Made by a program: the position numbers and the translations under genes. Below, one piece after another: positions 3,377 through 60,296 of a stretch of 64,000 bases of DNA. Below the pieces are notes generated by a model. The model was not told the DNA's origin, ran no database searches, and worked only from the letters and a program-made list of their open reading frames with translations. Positions within the stretch are counted from its first letter, which is position 1. Each line of letters opens with the position of its first letter. Source of the DNA: Escherichia phage vB_EcoM_FB; sequence record MT682711.1; one strand, written 5' to 3'.

Positions 3377-3667
3377 TTAGCACAATGCCGAAGAGGAGAC
3401 CCAAGCACCAACTGTAACGACGCCGTTTTCAACTTCACCGCCGTTGTTTTCAATTTCATCTTTAAACCACTGGGAGCATTCATAGCCGATAGGGTAATAT
3501 GTACGACCTGAACCATAATCGCCCGTACCGAATTGAATACCATACTTATCAGCAATTACTTCACATTCATGTTCGATGGTATCCACTTTATTCAGAAGAG
3601 CATAGATAGCTTTTTCTGCAGATTTCTCGTCGTTGTGTTCTGGGATTTCAATTTCAATTTTATTCAT
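3377..3667 (-). CDS. small acidic protein, paralog 4 (96 aa)
   Basis: ORF track; RBS AGGAAT; C-terminus GAWVSSSALC. Confidence 0.65.
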   Translation of the reverse strand: MNKIEIEIPEHNDEKSAEKAIYALLNKVDTIEHECEVIADKYGIQFGTGDYGSGRTYYPIGYECSQWFKDEIENNGGEVENGVVTVGAWVSSSALC

Positions 3668-4017
3668 GATTTACATTCCTTAATAAAGGTTTCAAGGTCA
3701 TTACATTTGGTTTGTTTTACATACTCATTATACTTAGCCATAGCTAAAGCATAACTCTTTTTACGTGGCTTGTTTAATTTATTAGTTTGGACAACATCAA
3801 AGACTAATGGGATAAAGTATCCTACTAAAGATGGAACCCAAATCCACGCAAGACTCATATCTTCAAACGGATGACGAGGCATACCATTAATAATCCCGCC
3901 AACAAGGAATCCTATTATTCCTGCAATCATACTAGTAGCAATGCCGAGGAATAAGGAAATAGAGATATCGTAATCTTCTAATGCATAACCTGGATCGGTT
4001 TTACTAGGCTTATACAT
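3664..4017 (-). CDS. hypothetical membrane protein (two hydrophobic segments)
   Basis: ORF-track frame 3664..4035 trimmed to second ATG (4017), which has an AAGAGG RBS; hydrophobic stretches IATSMIAGIIGFLVGGII and IWVPSLVGYFIPLVF. Confidence 0.55.
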   Translation of the reverse strand: MYKPSKTDPGYALEDYDISISLFLGIATSMIAGIIGFLVGGIINGMPRHPFEDMSLAWIWVPSLVGYFIPLVFDVVQTNKLNKPRKKSYALAMAKYNEYVKQTKCNDLETFIKECKS

Positions 4018-4546
4018 TTTGAACCTCTTTAGCATATTCGCGGCATTCTTTAATAAAACGATTAAGCTTGCGTTGCTGTTTACGACTTTCTAACGTGTAT
4101 TCGTCGGCCAAAACAATAAGCTCGTCTTTATCGTAATTTTTAATATCAGAGTAAGATGGACGACGGTCGACCATACCAAAATGGTCACCATTTTCTAACA
4201 TCAAATAACATACTAAATGATAATCATCATCTGCATTAGTAAGCTGCTTATAATCACTCGGTTCGTTTAAAGCATATACCGAATATCTTACTCCGGCGAA
4301 TTCCACTCGTTGAATAGCCAGATTTACGTCAATAATTTCTAAAGCTTCTGCAAAAGAAAGGTCTTCAGCTAAAGCAAAGATAAAGGGTAATTTAGTAGTA
4401 TAGCCACGGTTATTTGTTCTGCTTAAGAAATCGTTAGAATAACCTAGGTCCTGGCGAATTCTATAAAGAACCGCATTAGTTTCATGGGAAAGACCACTAT
4501 GCTTAAACCAATCAACATTTGATATCAGGTCATCATATAAACCCAT
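4010..4546 (-). CDS. hypothetical protein (178 aa)
   Basis: ORF-track frame 4010..4651 trimmed to ATG at 4546 (GAGAGGAG RBS); the longer N-terminus would run through the hairpin at 4569-4586. Confidence 0.55.
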   Translation of the reverse strand: MGLYDDLISNVDWFKHSGLSHETNAVLYRIRQDLGYSNDFLSRTNNRGYTTKLPFIFALAEDLSFAEALEIIDVNLAIQRVEFAGVRYSVYALNEPSDYKQLTNADDDYHLVCYLMLENGDHFGMVDRRPSYSDIKNYDKDELIVLADEYTLESRKQQRKLNRFIKECREYAKEVQNV

Positions 4547-4595
4547 AATATTCTCCTCTCCTCCAAATGGGGAGACCGAAGTCTCCCGGGTAACA

Positions 4596-5189
4596 TTACT
4601 TAAGTGAATTGATGTAGTCGTCGATATCAGCAGAAGTCGTATCCATTCCAACTTGTGGGCCTTTAAACGTTTCTACACGCATCAAGGTATCTTCAATATC
4701 AATCTTAGTCAGTGCAGCGATTTCAACAACATCATCGGCAGTAGCAATACCAAGGGCAGCCATATTACGAGTTTCACGGATATACTCGAGCTTAACGGCT
4801 AGTTCCTGACGAGAGTCATCAAGTTCCTTGACCTTAAGCTTAATTTCATTACGCATTTCAACATAATCATCAGCTTTCTTACGAAGTTGAGTAGCCGTAC
4901 GACGATAAAGGAGGCCCAGTTTAGCATGCACCTGAACATCGGCGCCTTCTTTAATCAGCTTACGAATTTCACGTTCTTTAGAACTAGCCAGTTGGTCCTT
5001 TTCATTAGCGAGTTCACGAATACGTTTTTCTTCATTCACAGACTTAACATGGGCAGTCTGGAGCTCAGTGATTTTATCAATCAGAGTAGAAGCAGCTTTA
5101 GTATACTGGTCTTCGATTGACAGGTTCTGAGCCATTGCGGTACCCAGTTTAGAACGGATGAATTCAACGATTTTCTTTAAAGTGTTCAT
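4596..5189 (-). CDS. hypothetical coiled-coil protein (197 aa)
   Basis: ORF track; charged heptad-like helices; downstream of the early promoter at 5232-5261. Confidence 0.6.
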
Positions 5190-5231
5190 AGTATTTCCTT
5201 CAGTTGGTTAAGATTTATAATCCATGAGGAC

Positions 5232-5261
5232 ATTATACCCTGTCCTCTGAGGTTTGTAAAC
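5232..5261 (-). promoter_or_regulatory. T4-type early promoter with -10 in a hairpin loop
   Basis: minus strand GTTTAC-18bp-TATAAT; inverted repeat GAGGACA/TGTCCTC flanks the -10. Confidence 0.5.
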
Positions 5262-5264
5262 ATT

Positions 5265-5663
5265 TTATTTCATTTTTGCGAGGCAAATTTCATTGGCTTC
5301 CCATTGAGCTTGCTTAATAATAGCTTTGGATACAGGAGCCCTTTGGCCATAAGTTTTTGACGTTGAGAGAACAATACATTTGTTTGCCTCATTATGCCAG
5401 CCCCGTGATTTTTCGCCATGAGTACCTTTAACTACAGCTGACACCTCAACAGAGCAACCACCATCAGAAATCTTGGTTTCGACAATCCATTCATTTCTTT
5501 CGACAGCTTCAAGTTCTAATCTAGTTTTTTCTTCATACATGGCGGCCCAATCAGTTTTTGCCAGGTTGAAAGTGAGAGCTTTCTCCAATTCTTTGGCAGC
5601 TTTTTGTTGTTCAGGCGTTAATGAATTGTACAACTCTTGCATTTCTTTATCTTCGATATTCAT
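5265..5663 (-). CDS. hypothetical protein (132 aa)
   Basis: ORF track; GAGGAG RBS. Confidence 0.6.
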   Translation of the reverse strand: MNIEDKEMQELYNSLTPEQQKAAKELEKALTFNLAKTDWAAMYEEKTRLELEAVERNEWIVETKISDGGCSVEVSAVVKGTHGEKSRGWHNEANKCIVLSTSKTYGQRAPVSKAIIKQAQWEANEICLAKMK

Positions 5664-5688
5664 TATGTTCTCCTCAAATTATGGGCTC

Positions 5689-5718
5689 ATAATATCTTAA
5701 TCATGAGCCCATGTAAAC
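5689..5718 (-). promoter_or_regulatory. T4-type early promoter inside a 10-bp inverted repeat
   Basis: minus strand GTTTAC-18bp-TATTAT; inverted repeat ATGGGCTCAT/ATGAGCCCAT. Confidence 0.5.
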
Positions 5719-5720
5719 AA

Positions 5721-5984
5721 TTATTTCATATTATTGAAATAATCTTCCGCATCAAAATCGTTATCATGATAAACTTTGGTAGACGATTTAGCATAACCTT
5801 CAGCTGAGAACATATTAACCACAACCTTAATTGTATACCATTGTCCGTCTTCATTACCCATTACAGCATACGTTTCATATACCGGATGTTCAGGACCGAT
5901 AACCTTAATATCGTTAACAGTAGCACCAAATTCTTCAGGAACGCATTTCATAAAGAAATTAAACAATTCACCGTAATTATCCAT
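5721..5984 (-). CDS. hypothetical protein (87 aa)
   Basis: ORF-track frame 5721..5999 trimmed to ATG at 5984 with GGAGAG RBS in the conserved leader. Confidence 0.55.
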   Translation of the reverse strand: MDNYGELFNFFMKCVPEEFGATVNDIKVIGPEHPVYETYAVMGNEDGQWYTIKVVVNMFSAEGYAKSSTKVYHDNDFDAEDYFNNMK

Positions 5985-6019
5985 TTTACTCTCCTTCACT
6001 CTGTTGTTTTGATAGGTCT

Positions 6020-6048
6020 ATAGTATCATGTTTAAAGGAGGTGTAAAC
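6020..6048 (-). promoter_or_regulatory. T4-type early promoter with conserved leader
   Basis: minus strand GTTTAC-17bp-TACTAT followed by AGACCTATCAAAACAACAGAGTGAA. Confidence 0.55.
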
Positions 6049-6070
6049 ATCTTTTTAAACTTTTTAGAAA

Positions 6071-6099
6071 CAAAAAAGGCCCAACCTTTCGGAAGGGCC
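6071..6099 (-). terminator. rho-independent terminator (minus-strand sense)
   Basis: hairpin GGCCC..GGGCC followed on the minus strand by TTTTTTG; exact copy at 51253-51281. Confidence 0.55.
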
Positions 6100-6156
6100 T
6101 TTAACCTAGGGTAACCTTGTCGGGGTTTCACCTGCTAGGCAAGTGTTTGTACGATA

Positions 6157-6240
6157 CGCCGGGATTCGAACCCGGTTATTAAGTAGTTGACGCTACTTAA
6201 TATTTTAAAAGGCCATATCTCGACCATATCCGAACGTTCC
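6157..6240 (-). ncRNA. tRNA-like or small stable RNA candidate
   Basis: canonical T-arm CCGGG-TTCGAAT-CCCGG on minus strand preceded by a 6-bp hairpin; no matching acceptor or anticodon arm found. Confidence 0.3.
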
Positions 6241-6409
6241 GTCAAAAACGCTACTCGGCTTACGGCAAAGATATTTCCTCGAATCGATAATTCTGTGCGC
6301 CGTTTAAGCTGTGATATAAGGGGTCATTAACAAAACATAAAGATTTATTAATGTCGGTCCTTAAACAGGGAACTTCAGTCCGACGACTTACCGGTAGCGA
6401 CCCGGTTTC

Positions 6410-6760
6410 TTAATATTCTTTTAAAGAATCAATATATTCACGGCGTTTACGCCACAAATCAATTGCTTCATACGCGGATTCAGCATTTCGAATTAGCCGG
6501 CATTTATGTAAAGACTTATGATTTTGATATTGTGTAGATAACGGAATTGTATCTAAAAGGTCTTTACGATCAAAATATTCGTAACCATCTAAACCAAATG
6601 AACGATTTTTGAGAAATTGCCAATGACCATATTCGTTTTCGACATAAACATAATCTGCATGCTGATAAAGCAAATTAATTACACGTTCAGAAATAACAGT
6701 ATCATTATGATTAAAATAGAATGTTAAATCATGAACTACTAAATAAACATTACCTTTCAT
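6410..6760 (-). CDS. hypothetical protein (116 aa) inside the tRNA cluster
   Basis: ORF track; GAGGA RBS 16 nt downstream of the tRNA-Arg 3' end. Confidence 0.5.
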   Translation of the reverse strand: MKGNVYLVVHDLTFYFNHNDTVISERVINLLYQHADYVYVENEYGHWQFLKNRSFGLDGYEYFDRKDLLDTIPLSTQYQNHKSLHKCRLIRNAESAYEAIDLWRKRREYIDSLKEY

Positions 6761-6778
6761 ATTTTCCTCACTTATAAT

Positions 6779-6854
6779 TGGTCGAGGCAGTAGGGATCGA
6801 ACCTACGACCTAGGACTTAGAAGGTCCTTGCTCTTCCTTCTGAGCTATGCCCCG
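6779..6854 (-). tRNA. tRNA-Arg (anticodon TCT)
   Basis: hand-folded cloverleaf: acceptor CGGGGCA/TGCCTCG, D-stem GCTC/GAGC, anticodon stem AGGAC/GTCCT with loop CTTCTAA, T-arm GTAGG-TTCGATC-CCTAC, encoded CCA. Confidence 0.85.
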
Positions 6855-6857
6855 TAA

Positions 6858-7526
6858 TTAAAATTTCATTTTTCGACCTTTAAACCATCCTTCTGGAATT
6901 GGGTCAGTTTTCTTAATACGTTTAGAAACTTTTTCATCTAATGAATGAATCCACATCATACCAAATTGGGAATTCTTTTCGCCCTGTTGATGTTTATTTC
7001 TGGCGTGAGATTCTTTCATTTTATTAATAGTTTCAGGAGTATGATGCTTATTTAAAAATCTGCTATTATTTAAAAATTTTTCCCTGTATTCAGGAGTTGA
7101 CCACAAGCGTTTAAATACATTTGAACCATGTTTACGATATTTTTCTTGAAGTAAAATATCACTTTTAAAACGTGACTTAAACGATTTAGCTCCTTTTAAA
7201 CTAGCGTCTTTCTTCTGGTTTAGCATCCCAGGAATATTTATATGGTCCCAACCACCTTCACCACCTAATTTCAAATTATAAACATCAGGGCGCTTTAAAA
7301 ACTCTTCAGTCACAATATTCTTTTCTGACTCAAACATAGAGGTTTTATCGTCAAAGAACTCTCTAATATTTCTTTAGAAAAATTTTCTATACCATACTTA
7401 TCTTGGGCTCTTTTTAATAATTTACCAGAACCCATATATCCATCATCTAAATTTTCGGTAGAATGAGCGCCTATATAGATTTTTATTATTAATTTTATTT
7501 GTTATTTTATAAATGTAATGGAACAT
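6858..7526 (-). pseudogene. GIY-YIG homing endonuclease disrupted by two frameshifts
   Basis: three frames together rebuild a protein collinear with the intact paralog at 12737-13249 ([15 protein letters not shown] / [26 protein letters not shown]... / ...NLKLGGEGG...); AGGAG RBS before the first ATG. Confidence 0.6.
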
Positions 7527-7567
7527 AAATATCTCCTATTTCTAAGAGTATTTATGTTCCCAAAATA

Positions 7568-7638
7568 TGGCCCTGGGTGGAATCGAACCACCATCCAGCG
7601 ATTATGAGTCGCTCGCTTGACCGTCCAGCTACAGGGCC
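7568..7638 (-). tRNA. tRNA with CAT anticodon (Ile2-type as in T4, or Met)
   Basis: acceptor GGCCCTG/CAGGGCC perfect, anticodon stem AGCGA/TCGCT with loop CTCATAA, T-arm GGTGG-TTCGATT-CCACC; CCA not encoded. Confidence 0.8.
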
Positions 7639-7733
7639 TTAATTCTATTATGAAAGGCTCTTTGAGGGAAGAACCTTTGGTAATAGAGGGTACTTATTAA
7701 TAATAACACACAACTCTTAAAGCATATTACTTG

Positions 7734-8114
7734 TTAACCTTCATCAACAATAGTGTGGGTATTGGCATTAACAATTTGCCACCAGTCGAAACGATTAGAA
7801 CCGTATTGAGGCTTATTCTCGTTTTCTTTAATGATATCACGCAGTTCATCTTCAGTCGCGGCCTTTGCGATTAAGTCGGCATAACCGCCACGGGGATAAT
7901 AGTTATCACCAGCAAAGAGTAAAAAGTTTGTTTTAATATTCTTGAATTCTTCAAGAGTAATAACTGTTCCAGATGGTTGGACAATATCTACGTAACTATA
8001 TCCTAATTTCTGGGCTTCATTTACTGCTTCAAGCAGGGTGTCATGGGCCCATCCAATTTGACAATCCGGTTTTTCAGATGGGTTGGCTTGATAATCTGCG
8101 TACACTTTATACAT
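7734..8114 (-). CDS. hypothetical protein (126 aa)
   Basis: ORF-track frame 7734..8162 trimmed to ATG at 8114 with AGGTGA RBS. Confidence 0.55.
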   Translation of the reverse strand: MYKVYADYQANPSEKPDCQIGWAHDTLLEAVNEAQKLGYSYVDIVQPSGTVITLEEFKNIKTNFLLFAGDNYYPRGGYADLIAKAATEDELRDIIKENENKPQYGSNRFDWWQIVNANTHTIVDEG

Positions 8115-8115
8115 T

Positions 8116-8301
8116 TTACTCACCTTTAGAGATTTTATCCATAACGAAAGAGATTGAACCAATTAAAAATGCCACTACTAAAGAGATTGTATTCTCAGAA
8201 GTTGTAAGCAAATCCAACATGAATCCTGCAAACATACTAAAACTAAAAGTGGTAATAGCAATAAGGGCAGTAGCATTTCTAATTAATTCACAACGTTTCA
8301 T
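8116..8301 (-). CDS. small membrane protein (61 aa)
   Basis: ORF-track frame trimmed to the ATG after the GGAG RBS in the conserved leader; two hydrophobic segments. Confidence 0.5.
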   Translation of the reverse strand: MKRCELIRNATALIAITTFSFSMFAGFMLDLLTTSENTISLVVAFLIGSISFVMDKISKGE

Positions 8302-8337
8302 TTTATTCTCCAATCACTCATTTGTTTTGATAGGGCT

Positions 8338-8367
8338 ATAGTATCATCACTAAAGCCCGTTGTAAAC
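8338..8367 (-). promoter_or_regulatory. T4-type early promoter with conserved leader
   Basis: minus strand GTTTAC-18bp-TACTAT then AGCCCTATCAAAACA; partial inverted repeat GGGCT/AGCCC. Confidence 0.5.
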
Positions 8368-8369
8368 AA

Positions 8370-8630
8370 TTATTTTAGATAAATTGCATATTTTTTATAG
8401 CCAGCTGTCTCGTGGCGCAACCCTTTGTCATTAGCAAAGCGTTCAATATTATTAATTTGGTTTTGGTCGAGTTCTGAAATATCAAATACAAAAAAGTTTC
8501 TCTTATTGCCTAAAGTTACGTGATTAGTCAAATCGATGTTATAGAGATGATTTATATTATCAATCACGGTCTTAACAGATTTGTTAATTTTTACTTCCTC
8601 ATTAAGAATAAATTCTTGATAAGTTTTCAT
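8370..8630 (-). CDS. internal protein (ipI-locus) with capsid-targeting N-terminus
   Basis: N-terminus MKTYQEFILNE resembles the T4 internal-protein targeting peptide with an L-x-E protease site (recalled from T4); lies next to 57B as ipI does in T4. Confidence 0.6.
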   Translation of the reverse strand: MKTYQEFILNEEVKINKSVKTVIDNINHLYNIDLTNHVTLGNKRNFFVFDISELDQNQINNIERFANDKGLRHETAGYKKYAIYLK

Positions 8631-8667
8631 TTTGGGTTCCGTTTGGTTAGTTTGTTTTGATAGGTCT

Positions 8668-8696
8668 ATAGTATCATATTTATAGACCTTGTAAAC
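8668..8696 (-). promoter_or_regulatory. T4-type early promoter inside an inverted repeat
   Basis: minus strand GTTTAC-17bp-TACTAT; inverted repeat GGTCTATA/TATAGACC; leader GACCTATCAAAACA. Confidence 0.55.
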
Positions 8697-8703
8697 AACT
8701 TTT

Positions 8704-9381
<678 letters not shown>

Positions 9382-9389
<8 letters not shown>

Positions 9390-10143
9390 TTTTATTTCCT
9401 AATAATTTATCAATAGTAGTGTATAGTTCAGAAAGGGTTCCGTTATTTTCAACAACAACGTCACCAGGTAAAATTGGTAGACCCGCTTCAGTAATGTGCG
9501 AGTCTTGTACTTGACCGGTATCAGCGCGAACTACATGAATAATCGTAGCACCCATCGCCCTGAGCGAATCAATTTCATGTGTTTGACGAACATCAGGTAC
9601 GACATAGTATTTCGCATCAGAGTATATTTTATCAAAATAGTCTAAAGCGAATAACTTAACCCAATACATTTTATCAAATCGGTTAACAATAATATCAGTC
9701 CCAAGGGTCTGCATGAGACGACGTACTGACCAATTGTTATTTTTATTTATTACTTCAAACAGTTGGTCTTTTGTTTCTTCAGACAGATACTGGACTGGGG
9801 TAAGACCATAATGATATGCGGTACGAACATCCATTCCTGGAATAGGAAGGATATTATTCAGTTTGACAATAGCATTTTCAAAGATATCAATCACATCATA
9901 TGGTTTTAAAGGAATGATTTCTTCACGGTCGTAACCGATACCTTCAAAACAGTTAAAATCTAGTTTAGGCATGTAACTACGGTCGAATACAGGGTCATCA
10001 GAGATGTATTCATAGGCTTCAGCCAGATACTTTTTAATAGGACCTGCGAGCTGAAATTTTACCGAATCCATATTTTCGATTACATAGTTAGCAACGGTAT
10101 CCTTACCGCTACGTTTGATTCCTACAATTGATATTAGTTTCAT
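9382..10143 (-). CDS. 1: deoxynucleoside monophosphate kinase gp1
   Basis: P-loop GIKRSGKDT; conserved blocks WSVRRLMQ.LGTD, MYWVKLFALDY, AMGAT.IHVVR match T4 gp1 as recalled. Confidence 0.9.
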
Positions 10144-40441: not shown

Positions 40442-41076
40442 TGAAACCTGAATTGCTCATCGAACATTGGGGACAACCAGGTGAAATTATCGATGGGGTT
40501 CCTATGTTGGAATCTCATGATGGAAAAAATTCTGGGCTTGCTCCCGGCCTTTATATAGAAGGCATTTTCATGCAAGCAGAGGTAGTTAACCGTAATAAAC
40601 GGCTTTACCCAAAACCTATTTTGGAAAAAGCCGTTGCCGATTATATGGCAGAACAGGTTGCTACTAAACAAGCTTTAGGAGAATTAAACCACCCACCTCG
40701 TGCTAACGTTGACCCTATGCAAGCTGCTATCATTATTGAAGATATGTGGTGGAAAGGTAATGATGTTTATGGACGTGCACGTATCATCGAAGGTGACCAT
40801 GGCCCGGGTGATAAACTAGCTGCAAATATCCGAGCTGGCTGGGTTCCTGGTGTTAGTTCTCGCGGTCTTGGTTCTTTAACTGAAACCAATAAAGGATATA
40901 AGCGTGTAAACGAAGGTTATAAATTAACCGTCGGTGTTGATGCAGTATGGGGACCATCTGCTCCTGATGCTTATGTAACTCCGAAGCAAATTACAGAATC
41001 ACAAACGGTAGAAACCGATACCAGTGCCGATGACGCCTTTATGGCTCTCGCAGAGGCCATGAAAAAAGCGTTATAA
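40441..41076 (+). CDS. 21: prohead core protease gp21
   Basis: 211 aa (T4 212), synteny. Confidence 0.85.
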   Translation: MKPELLIEHWGQPGEIIDGVPMLESHDGKNSGLAPGLYIEGIFMQAEVVNRNKRLYPKPILEKAVADYMAEQVATKQALGELNHPPRANVDPMQAAIIIEDMWWKGNDVYGRARIIEGDHGPGDKLAANIRAGWVPGVSSRGLGSLTETNKGYKRVNEGYKLTVGVDAVWGPSAPDAYVTPKQITESQTVETDTSADDAFMALAEAMKKAL

Positions 41077-43848: not shown

Positions 43849-43878
43849 ATAGTAACATGTGAGAATCTTGCTGTAAAC
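43849..43878 (-). promoter_or_regulatory. T4-type early promoter with conserved leader
   Basis: minus strand GTTTAC-18bp-TACTAT then AGACCTATCAAAACA. Confidence 0.5.
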
Positions 43879-47920: not shown

Positions 47921-47943
47921 GCAAAATGGGCCTTGCGGCCCAT
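47921..47943 (-). terminator. rho-independent terminator (minus sense) after hoc
   Basis: ATGGGCC-TTGC-GGCCCAT followed on the minus strand by TTTTGC. Confidence 0.55.
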
Positions 47944-47945
47944 TA

Positions 47946-60239: not shown

Positions 60240-60296
60240 AATGTTCTCCTCATGTTTGTGTAAGGTAATAGTAACACCATCCTTGGCGTTTGTAAA

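Follow-up and report, generated by a model that had tools for sequence, protein, structure and literature searches.

Composite cassettes in which an early promoter is combined with a stem-loop (promoter-early stem-loop, PeSL) have been described in the phages RB49/phi1 (Arbiol et al., 2010; PMC2839356) and in PST/T4 and nt-1/KVP40 (Comeau et al., 2014; PMC4122927). Five subclasses are distinguished, including those with the stem-loop between -35 and -10 or overlapping -10 (PMC2839356). The promoters are very strong, and recombination between two PeSLs gives rise to mini-circles (PMC2839356; PMC4122927). In the published read-through test, which used a single RB49/phi1 stem-loop, the element cut read-through into lacZ as strongly as rrnB T1 (PMC2839356). 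The published consensus of T4-type early promoters consists of GTTTAC at -36 to -31, a TAnnnT -10 element, A/T-rich DNA upstream and a C-rich stretch at -3 to -1 (PMC1524935). In bacteria, promoter-coupled terminators carry a hairpin over the -35 element and a T-tract in the spacer just upstream of -10, and mapping puts the 3' end 8-11 bp ahead of the transcription start site (Fletcher et al., 2026; 10.64898/2026.08.19.745784).

The two elements analysed here, P1 and P2, lie on the minus strand of a 64,000-nt stretch of Escherichia phage vB_EcoM_FB DNA (MT682711.1; the window). They are probably composite cassettes of the PeSL type in a T4-like, Dhakavirus-related phage, with two separable functions held in a very short gap.

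Candidate early promoters and hairpins at P1 and P2

P1 is located in a 75-nt intergenic gap before the e.6 homologue and P2 in a 57-nt gap before an open reading frame of 132 aa (Table 1). The original prediction read them as minus-strand promoters, GTTTAC-18-TATAAT (P1) and GTTTAC-18-TATTAT (P2), upstream of genes starting at 5189 and 5663; direct reading places the elements at 5261-5232 (P1) and 5718-5689 (P2) and confirms both them and the gene starts, each an ATG. Both fit the T4-type early consensus (PMC1524935) and are treated here as promoters predicted from sequence; the predicted +1 would be A5225 at P1 and about A5682 at P2. The upstream stop codon lies 3 nt (P1) or 2 nt (P2) from GTTTAC, the A/T content of the 20-24 nt upstream is 80% (P1) and 92% (P2), and downstream of P1 a Shine-Dalgarno (SD) sequence, AAGGAA, precedes the ATG. 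The exact pattern GTTTAC-N17-19-TATNAT occurs in the 64 kb at P1 and P2 only (0.27 occurrences expected), and two matches were reached by 1 of 100 shuffles. P1 (TTTACA-17-TATAAT, 11/12) and P2 (TTTACA-17-TATTAT, 10/12) are also the top two sigma-70 matches within 3500-9500.

Table 1. Positions of the P1 and P2 elements, the adjoining genes and related elements in the window.
Feature	Position	Strand	Evidence	Remark
P1 -35, GTTTAC	5261-5256	minus	sequence reading, promoter scan	fits T4 early consensus (PMC1524935)
P1 alternative -35, TTTACA	5260-5255	minus		spacer 17 instead of 18 nt
P1 hairpin 5' arm, GAGGACA	5247-5241	minus	fold, inverted-repeat test, covariation	inside promoter spacer
P1 -10, TATAAT	5237-5232	minus		within hairpin loop; final T is first base of 3' arm
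P1 hairpin 3' arm, TGTCCTC	5232-5226	minus	fold, covariation	discriminator region (-7 to -1)
P2 -35, GTTTAC	5718-5713	minus	sequence reading, promoter scan	
P2 perfect 10-bp inverted repeat, ATGGGCTCAT / ATGAGCCCAT	5712-5703 / 5690-5681	minus	direct reading	
P2 hairpin 5' arm, ATGGGCTCATGAT	5700-5712	minus	RNAfold	perfect 10 bp at 5703-5712
P2 -10, TATTAT	5694-5689	minus		first T in loop, ATTAT in 3' arm
P2 hairpin 3' arm, ATTATGAGCCCAT	5681-5693	minus	RNAfold, relatives	
P2 SD, GAGGAG	5675-5670	minus		followed by ATG at 5663
e.6 homologue, 197 aa	4596-5189	minus		gene served by P1
132-aa hypothetical gene	5265-5663	minus		served by P2; between both cassettes; missing in some relatives
ATGAAATAA	5265-5273	minus		final codons and stop of 132-aa gene; repeated at 5721-5729
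e.8 homologue	5721-5984	minus		stop codon 2 nt before P2 -35
Cassette-family promoter, -35 GTGTAC	722-749	minus		10-bp hairpin across -10
Canonical terminator, hairpin and T-run	6075-6102	minus		upstream of -35 of promoter at 6047
Cassette-family promoter	8333-8358	minus		hairpin GGGCTtTAG/CTAtAGCCC across -10
Cassette-family early promoter	8662-8689	minus		9-bp hairpin AGGTCTATA/TATAGACCT across -10

In both promoters an inverted repeat brackets the -10 box, as had been claimed. The repeat at P1 has 7 bp and a loop of 8 nt; the 10 bp at P2 are perfect and are extended by RNAfold to a stem of 13 bp including one G-U (5712-5700 with 5693-5681) with a loop of 6 nt. Relative to the predicted +1 the hairpins would span about -22 to -1 (P1) and about -30 to +2 (P2), covering spacer, -10 and discriminator and leaving the -35 outside. 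Their loops are large, A/U-rich and set by the -10 box, with no tetraloop. On the sense strand the fold energy is -12.4 for P1 and -20.1 for P2; the antisense folds differ modestly (-11.2 and -16.3 respectively). A search of Rfam returned no family over the hairpins, the matches being two tRNAs and sub-threshold noise.

An excess over chance is clear for the repeat of P2 and marginal for that of P1 taken alone. With the hexamers fixed and the rest shuffled, an inverted repeat of at least equal length was found with p = 0.0002 at P2 and p = 0.010 at P1. The fold-energy calculation proposed with the prediction gave z-scores of -5.7 and -6.5 for P2 (0 of 200 shuffles folded equally well) and, for P1, -3.5 in a 33-nt frame (1 of 200 shuffles) and -0.76 across the whole 75-nt gap. 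The P2 hairpin is thus far beyond chance and stands alone, whereas P1, because its whole-gap fold and inverted-repeat statistics are weak, depends on the comparative evidence described below, which supports it. Across the window, 27 perfect inverted repeats of at least 8 bp were observed vs 14.5 ± 4.1 in dinucleotide shuffles.

The two stems differ from each other and from those of the cassette family found elsewhere in the window, and the architecture is the same, in agreement with the original prediction. What P1 and P2 have in common is the 5' part only, ATGAAATAA..GTTTACA (gene end and -35), and they do not appear to be sequence repeats of one cassette. The -10/downstream cassette of the family, TACTATAGACCTATCAAAACA, recurs with differing spacers at 722, 8695, 6047 and 43877. 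Complementary spacers are found at 722 and 8695, where the upstream gene adjoins the promoter. Complementarity is missing at 6047, which has a separate terminator (hairpin and T-run) upstream, and at 43877, whose upstream gene is transcribed divergently. The terminator ahead of the 6047 promoter represents the alternative arrangement, which is used in longer gaps. Position 40608 of phage IME08 carries an element that resembles P1 and has the identical GAGTATAA loop.

Conserved pairing and separability of promoter and hairpin

Searching IMG/VR for exact matches to the pattern of the e.6 start, ATGAAYACTTTAAAGAAA, gave 120 loci; nearly all of these were chance matches in AT-rich DNA, and 7 distinct real orthologues were left after filtering. 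A metagenome scan with a profile of the 132-aa protein gave 4 loci. The P1 stem, GAGGACA/TGTCCTC in the window, reads GAGGGCA/TGCCCTC in ESCO10, GGGAGTA/TACTCCC in S1P5QW, GAGAGCA/TGCTCTC in the Mosigvirus phage EP32a and in TB004, GGGAACAT/ATGTTCCC in VR20-type phages and GTGTAGGAG/CTCCTACAC in Kosakonia 305. A formal count on an alignment without Kosakonia 305 showed two-sided changes in 5 of the 7 pairs and pairing in 91.8% of cells, a result reached by 0 of 500 shuffles; controls with a slid register gave 35-53% paired. The P2 stem occurs as ATGGGC/GCCCAT, ACGGGC/GCCCGT, ACAGGC/GCCTGT and ATAGGC/GCCTAT, with 2 of 13 pairs changed on both sides, 97.2% of cells paired and a covariation score again reached by 0 of 500 shuffles.

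These compensatory substitutions in orthologous sites of related phages support the view that pairing itself is under selection in both stems, which had been suggested from the window by the shared architecture. Between distant lineages, part of the 'covariation' may reflect replacement of whole cassettes rather than stepwise compensation. As a full explanation, replacement is disfavoured by clean single-pair swaps between near-identical sequences, from the window to ESCO10 at P1 and from the window to dhabil at P2; a further P2 swap separates IME339 from Shinka, with a C.A intermediate in FJ1. As an indicator of sense RNA as opposed to antisense RNA or DNA, about six sense-strand G-U wobbles vs two C.A pairs were counted, too few for the difference to be significant.

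Promoter and hairpin also occur apart. The predicted P1 promoter is kept without the stem in RB51, IME339, Shinka and FJ1, and T4 has a promoter at this place with only a weak 6-bp AT stem. At the P2 position of VR20, phage 212, TH54 and one metagenome contig there is no promoter, and a GGGGC-GAAA-GCCCC hairpin lies 2 nt before the SD. In these sequences promoter and hairpin are separable modules; since orthologous promoters exist without the hairpin and an orthologous hairpin without the promoter, the hairpin is not a necessary promoter part. A census of IME08 found a hairpin across -10 in 7 of about 27 candidate early promoters, about a quarter (-11.7 to -19.3 kcal/mol; shuffle p ≤ 0.003; about 0.3 expected by chance). 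At least 8 tandem promoters of IME08 with no gap to the upstream stop are without any hairpin, so the hairpin is not generally required at tandem junctions; a rule drawn from the window, with a hairpin wherever a co-directional upstream gene abuts the promoter and none at divergent junctions, is broken by these exceptions.

The site belongs to the variable e.x region, with gene loss and replacement in relatives. ATGAAATAA and GTTTACA at P1 form a direct repeat with 5721-5729 and 5712-5718 at P2. In one IMG/VR genome (L091) the 132-aa gene is precisely missing, and the junction lies within this ATGAAATAA..GTTTACA repeat common to P2 and P1. In T4 the P2 cassette (ATAGGCTnAT...ATGAGCCTAT) stands before another gene, e.7, which replaces the 132-aa gene, and the genes upstream of P1 vary between phages (VR20, EP32a and other relatives).

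Proposed function and alternative explanations

As a composite cassette, each element would serve on double-stranded DNA as a strong T4-type early promoter used by the host sigma-70 RNA polymerase, built from the A/T-rich upstream DNA, the GTTTAC -35 and a -10 similar to TATAAT, with 17/18 bp between them. Transcription of the downstream gene would begin at or beside the final base of the hairpin 3' arm. The second function would be that of a stem-loop acting in RNA, its 5' arm placed in the otherwise free spacer and its 3' arm coinciding with -10 and discriminator. Because the cassette's own transcript would start past the hairpin, the hairpin would be present only in RNA from upstream promoters, and in such read-through RNA it would form the 3'-proximal structure of the upstream cistron. 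There it would most likely attenuate or terminate read-through, block 3'-exonucleolytic decay, or both, and the expression of neighbouring early genes would be insulated as a result. As a side effect, the repeated cassettes would act as recombination points for the excision or exchange of genes. The sense-strand RNA is presumably the functional form, and the effect of the hairpin would be exerted on that RNA.

The hairpins are not canonical intrinsic (Rho-independent) terminators: the terminator scan calls neither, and the tails ATGGATTA and AATTTGAG have no U-tract, unlike the hairpins at 6075-6102 and 47925-47944, which are accompanied by T-runs. The sequence after the hairpin is AUGGAUUAUAAAUC at P1 and AAUUUGAGG at P2, again with no U-tract in either; together with the scan, this makes efficient intrinsic termination doubtful. 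There is an outside chance that the hairpin, rather than simply terminating transcription or stabilizing RNA, works as a read-through sensor within the promoter. Incoming RNA polymerases would then pause or be released exactly at the start site of the next promoter, the 5' arm being the spacer and the 3' arm a discriminator that ends exactly at +1. Upstream transcription and local initiation would cross-regulate, and termination would be U-tract-independent and dependent on promoter occupancy. If true, this would be the phage counterpart, in another register, of the promoter-terminator coupling proposed for bacteria, and would account for the presence of hairpins at only certain early-gene junctions.

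Chance inverted repeats in AT-rich intergenic DNA have next to no probability as an explanation: although P1 alone is marginal by whole-gap z-score and inverted-repeat p, P2 is not, the hairpins of IME08 far exceed their chance expectation, and the compensatory evolution in both stems effectively refutes chance through the covariation counts. It is unlikely that the hairpin is an intrinsic promoter part acting in the DNA itself. In that case supercoiled or melted DNA would form a cruciform or a single-strand hairpin that tunes or switches the early promoter, for example by shutting it off as superhelicity changes; phage N4, whose early promoters depend on hairpins, would be a loose parallel. 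In favour of this, the centre of the inverted repeat falls on -10 and the discriminator is its 3' arm, the stems are also stable with DNA parameters (z = -3.8 and -4.9), and conserved pairing symmetry would be equally expected of a cruciform. However, phages of the T4/RB51 lineage have kept the orthologous promoters and not the stem, about three quarters of the IME08 early promoters are stemless, and the hairpin at the P2 site persists in phages with no promoter there. A cruciform is not readily extruded from a 7-bp stem or with loops of 6-12 nt. Moreover, the TACTATAGACCTATCAAAACA cassette is without a complementary spacer where a terminator stands separately upstream or next to a divergent gene, and it is as duplex DNA that the host sigma-70 holoenzyme reads T4-type early promoters (PMC2988021). 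An operator, at which a dimeric phage or host regulator covers -10 and shuts the early promoters off, is very unlikely. A palindrome over -10 has the classical repressor geometry, the mechanism of the T4 early shut-off minutes after infection is still not fully explained (PMC2988021), and, according to a preprint on bacteria, palindromes of terminators can serve in addition as transcription-factor sites (10.64898/2026.08.19.745784). Against this, the arms are unrelated among P1, P2 and the cassette family, the half-site spacing ranges from 6 to 12 nt, and within an orthologous site both halves change together with complementarity alone being kept; G-U pairs, which are meaningful for RNA and meaningless for a protein site, are tolerated.

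We also think it improbable that the hairpins are kept mainly as recombination devices, structure-prone sites favouring PeSL-PeSL exchange and the excision of mini-circles (selfish modules or modules for evolvability), and play no part in expression. The clean deletion between P2 and P1, the different genes behind the P2 cassette in T4 and in the window and the different genes adjoining P1 would all fit such a role; a mini-circle crossover inside the loop has been reported for RB49 (PMC2839356), and GGGC/GCCC inverted repeats occur at T4 deletion end points (cited in PMC2839356); the P2 stem includes GGGC...GCCC. The junction in the deleted genome, however, lies in the direct repeat and outside the hairpins, which themselves differ between P1 and P2, and stepwise compensation in very close relatives implies purifying selection in each generation, an unlikely product of a rare recombination benefit. 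A role in translation or mRNA processing of the downstream gene on read-through RNA, on the model of T4 e, soc, 49 and I-TevI, is quite unlikely. As in the classical T4 cases, the promoter lies inside the hairpin and its own transcript would be without the 5' arm, and the P2 and VR20-type structures end 2-5 nt before the SD. The 3' arms nevertheless hold neither SD nor AUG, the P2 hairpin ending 5 nt before GAGGAG and the P1 hairpin about 25 nt before its SD; the SD is unpaired in minimum free energy (MFE) folds, and the embedded promoter is of the early and not the late (TATAAATA) type. A hairpin that sequesters the ribosome-binding site was rejected, since the SD lies outside both stems.

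Significance and comparison with described systems

The composite-cassette reading would extend PeSL-type cassettes to Dhakavirus-like relatives of the T-even phages and to a layout with the -10 inside the hairpin of a GTTTAC promoter, with natural variants that reveal promoter and hairpin as separate modules. It would be of practical use in annotating transcription units and gene-swap points in the genomes of therapeutic T4-like phages, and it singles out promoter/insulator parts that are small and portable. The mechanism would be of a new kind only if the hairpin acts U-tract-independently and coupled to the promoter.

Phage N4 has its own virion RNA polymerase, for which a small DNA hairpin with a 3-nt loop is a recognition element. 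P1 and P2 resemble this in that the early promoters of a lytic coliphage have a hairpin; they differ in being ordinary sigma-70 promoters with -35 and -10, with a hairpin that is dispensable in orthologues. Tuerk and co-workers are said to have described, in 1988, intercistronic tetraloop hairpins of T4 such as C(UUCG)G. These likewise are stable hairpins straight after stop codons in T4-type early regions, and hairpins of this type were seen after T4 e.6 (GGGGC-UUCG-GCCCC) and at the VR20-type P2 position (GGGGC-GAAA-GCCCC); the large A/U-rich loops of P1 and P2, with neither tetraloop nor U-tract, set them apart from both tetraloop hairpins and intrinsic terminators. In T4 e, soc, 49 and I-TevI a hairpin reportedly hides the ribosome-binding site on the long RNA and an internal promoter yields a translatable short RNA (work ascribed to McPheeters, 1986, and related studies). 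P1 and P2 share with these genes a promoter embedded in a hairpin and a predicted short transcript without the 5' arm, but their 3' arms are free of SD and AUG and their promoters are of the early class; with SD and AUG outside the stems and unpaired in MFE folds, they do not have the layout of this translational switch.

With the promoter-coupled terminators of bacteria (10.64898/2026.08.19.745784) P1 and P2 have in common that one piece of DNA between tandem genes holds both a terminator-type hairpin and the promoter that follows, an overlap that saves intergenic space, and that the proposed effect is coupling or insulation of adjacent transcription units. The hairpins of P1 and P2, however, bracket the -10, lie over spacer, -10 and discriminator, end at +1 and are without a T-tract, which places them outside that class.

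The closest likeness is to the PeSL cassettes. P1 and P2 have an early sigma-70-type pair of elements about 17 bp apart, an A/T-rich upstream tract with a stop codon, a stable stem-loop overlapping -10, an SD and start codon at the 3' end, and a position in a variable (hyperplastic) region with gene insertion, deletion and replacement. They directly follow the stop codon of the preceding gene in a neighbourhood of small, variable early genes, genes are excised or replaced there as at the published cassettes, and overlap with -10 is among the two most frequent stem-loop positions in RB49/phi1. On the other hand, the phage is Dhakavirus-like, a group for which the earlier mention is only of 'PeSL-like sequences' near g43 of JS98; P1 and P2 have the T-even GTTTAC at -35 in place of TTGACA, the stems are not polyG/polyC, and the published PST/T4 stem-loops lie just upstream of the promoter whereas those of P1 and P2 lie across the -10. 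The architecture of P1 and P2 is therefore already known, as the PeSL subclass with the stem-loop over -10 (PMC2839356), and what is new relative to the original descriptions (PMC2839356; PMC4122927), as far as we have found, is the clear evidence from compensatory evolution that the pairing itself is under selection.

Promoters and inverted repeats of the e.x region

At the DNA level the region is ~94% identical to the JS98/IME08/WG01 group of T4-like phages (Dhakavirus and neighbours), and the 132-aa protein matches its counterpart in phage Bp7 at 98.5% identity. Gene names on the minus strand were taken from the IME08 and T4 annotation. Downstream of tRNA genes, the e.8/132-aa/e.6 block represents the variable early region known as 'e.x'; related IME08 has three tRNAs (Arg, Asn, Met) at the corresponding place.

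P1 and P2 are predicted early promoters with hairpins, upstream of the e.6 homolog and the 132-aa gene respectively. The original prediction of minus-strand GTTTAC-18-TATAAT and GTTTAC-18-TATTAT promoters with an inverted repeat (IR) around the -10 is borne out: both are present, are the best two local sigma-70 matches and are the sole occurrences of the exact pattern in 64 kb (0.27 expected). Both agree with the T-even early consensus [GTTTAC at -36 to -31, A-rich upstream, T-12, A-11, T-7 and C-rich -3 to -1 (PMC1524935; PMC2988021)]. The fold energy of P1 is -12.4 kcal/mol (z-score -3.5 locally, -0.76 across the entire gap) and that of P2 is -20.1 kcal/mol (z-score -5.7 / -6.5; 0/200 shuffles as good). 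With hexamers held fixed, the IR p-value is 0.010 for P1 and 0.0002 for P2. Perfect IRs of at least 8 bp number 27 across the window against 14.5 +/- 4.1 in dinucleotide shuffles and are thus about twice as common, not similarly frequent in shuffled sequence, the outcome that would have spoken against the prediction.

The 9-bp all-A/T repeat ATTATTTCA/TGAAATAAT, which directly precedes the P2 -35, is unlikely to be strong enough to matter. A 7/8 match to the T4 late-promoter motif TATAAATA in the predicted e.6 5' UTR is not conserved in the VR20-type relatives (VR20, phage 212, TH54 and a metagenome contig).

Features in and around the promoters and cassettes (all on the minus strand where a strand is given)
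Feature	Position	Strand	Remark
e.8 homolog	5984-5721	minus	IME08/T4 annotation
132-aa hypothetical gene	5663-5265	minus	IME08/T4 annotation
e.6 homolog	5189-4596	minus	IME08/T4 annotation
tRNA-Arg(TCT)	6779-6854	minus	upstream of e.8 promoter region
tRNA-Met(CAT)	7568-7638	minus	upstream of e.8 promoter region
P1 promoter	GTTTAC 5261-5256, TATAAT 5237-5232	minus	18-nt spacer; read directly
P1 IR	GAGGACA 5247-5241, TGTCCTC 5232-5226	minus	loop 8 nt; read directly
P2 promoter	GTTTAC 5718-5713, TATTAT 5694-5689	minus	18-nt spacer; read directly
P2 IR		minus	ATGGGCTCAT/ATGAGCCCAT; 13 bp when extended, one G-U, loop 6 nt; fold
Near-direct repeat	5712-5729, 5255-5273	minus	18-19 bp
All-A/T IR	5720-5743		over e.8 last codons and stop
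Late-promoter-like TATAAATC	5212-5219	minus	predicted e.6 5' UTR
Cassette	722-749	minus	upstream gene abuts promoter; spacer complementary
Cassette site	8662-8689 (copy 8668-8695)	minus	upstream gene abuts promoter; spacer complementary
Cassette variant site	8333-8358 (copy 8338-8366)	minus	upstream gene abuts promoter; spacer complementary
Cassette 6047	6020-6047	minus	canonical hairpin and T-run terminator upstream; spacer not complementary
Cassette 43877	43849-43877	minus	divergent upstream gene; spacer not complementary
Early-type promoter	60268-60296	minus	abuts stop codon of 683-aa gene

Conservation of pairing and exchange of modules

Among orthologous gaps gathered from 25-30 related phages and contigs, the e.6 promoter hairpin persists in at least five arm versions, the -10 box being retained in the loop: GAGGACA/TGTCCTC in most Dhakavirus, GAGGGCA/TGCCCTC in ESCO10, GGGAGTA/TACTCCC in S1P5QW, GAGAGCA/TGCTCTC in Mosigvirus EP32a and TB004, and GGGAACAT/ATGTTCCC in VR20, phage 212, TH54 and two metagenome contigs. 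The Kosakonia phage 305 version is GTGTAGGAG/CTCCTACAC, around TAGTAT. In a 14-sequence alignment (two stem-less sequences included, Kosakonia 305 left out) both sides have changed in 5/7 pairs and pairing holds in 91.8% of cells; 0/500 shuffles score as high and slid controls reach 35-53%. P2 has four stem variants, ATGGGC/GCCCAT, ACGGGC/GCCCGT (dhabil), ACAGGC/GCCTGT (IME339) and ATAGGC/GCCTAT (S1P5QW, Shinka, T4), with a C.A intermediate in FJ1 and slight damage in JS98, MN04, QL01 and KIT01; 97.2% of cells are paired and the covariation score is reached by 0/500 shuffles. By these alignments both stems are under selection for pairing, as had been proposed. Several variants are one clean pair swap between otherwise identical sequences, which points to in-situ compensation and not solely cassette replacement.

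Promoter and hairpin are separable. The e.6 promoter persists without a stem in RB51, IME339, Shinka and FJ1, and the T4 site has no more than a weak 6-bp AT stem; both elements are missing from Jiaodavirus, Aeromonas 31.2, phiR1-RT and PG7. At the P2 position of VR20-type phages the promoter is absent, the upstream gene differs and a GGGGC-GAAA-GCCCC tetraloop hairpin lies just upstream of the 132-aa homolog, 2 nt before the SD. A similar hairpin, GGGGC-UUCG-GCCCC, is found in T4 between e.6 and e.5.

The e.8 and 132-aa genes both end in ATGAAATAA, followed after 2-3 nt by GTTTACA, and this gene end plus -35 forms a near-direct repeat flanking the 132-aa gene. The gene is precisely absent in the IMG/VR genome IMGVR_UViG_2974741249, with the junction inside the repeat (2068-2094 there). 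In T4 the P2 cassette precedes e.7, not the 132-aa gene, and the upstream gene abutting P1 varies among phages. Gene loss or exchange at cassettes is likewise described for the promoter-early stem-loops (PeSLs) of T4-type phages (PMC2839356, PMC4122927).

Possible role of the hairpins

With the customary 7 nt between -10 and +1, P1 would start at A5225, the base following the 3' arm, and P2 at ~A5682, within the final two bases of the arm. Since these positions lie at or after the end of the 3' arm, the hairpin would be missing from the promoter's own mRNA and carried only by RNA initiated upstream, 8-17 nt past the upstream stop codon. There it may act as a terminator or attenuator of upstream transcription, in line with the PeSL proposal; one RB49/phi1 stem-loop matched rrnB T1 in reducing lacZ read-through (both PMC2839356). 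Neither hairpin is followed by a U-tract, which argues against efficient intrinsic termination; the hairpins could equally well form a barrier to 3'-exonucleases or attenuate transcription in part. The wobble asymmetry (~6 vs 2) that bears on RNA vs DNA and on sense vs antisense is not significant, and the sense fold exceeds the antisense fold in stability by only a modest margin. Binding of a protein to the repeats as an operator is unlikely, because complementarity is conserved but sequence is not and the arms differ from site to site. An RBS-masking switch is excluded, since the SD lies outside both stems.

Cassettes and known stem-loop promoters

The conserved cassette TACTATAGACCTATCAAAACA, an early-promoter motif differing in sequence from P1 and P2, occurs in several contexts, and its spacer is complementary to the -10/discriminator segment in some copies only. 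It takes the form (G)T(T/G)TAC-N17/18-TACTATAG(A/C)CCTATCAAAACA (at least five minus-strand copies in the window), with an initial transcribed region, ATCAAAACAA, conserved for no obvious reason. The context rule suggested by these copies was checked on 100 kb of IME08, where 7 of ~27 candidate early promoters have a strong hairpin across the -10 (~0.3 expected by chance). In the same 100 kb, eight or more promoters abut an upstream gene without a strong hairpin, ruling out a simple rule of a hairpin wherever an upstream gene abuts. From these counts the hairpin is enriched and selected at particular junctions, yet not obligatory. A P1-like element at ~40608 of IME08 (minus strand, GTTTAC-aaactcttGGGACCAgagTATAATGGTCCt) has the loop, GAGTATAA, that P1 has in S1P5QW and EP32a, a likeness suggesting a second small cassette family to which P1 would belong.

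P1 and P2, which share only the gene end and -35 with each other, carry the sequence-level defining features of PeSLs and, the layout being already known, count as additional examples. The finding is correct but largely accounted for by earlier work; what is added is documented selection on the pairing. The published mention of JS98 is limited to PeSL-like sequences near g43. The promoter at 60268-60296 has a candidate 7-bp stem (one G-U; dG -7.6) wholly within the -35/-10 spacer, and would represent the other common PeSL subclass. A stem-loop overlapping the -10, as in P1 and P2, has been described for RB49/phi1, whereas in the published figure legend for PST/T4, a T-even pair, the stem-loops lie upstream of the promoter. 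Bacterial promoter-coupled terminators (2026 preprint, 10.64898/2026.08.19.745784) are a functional analogue in another register.
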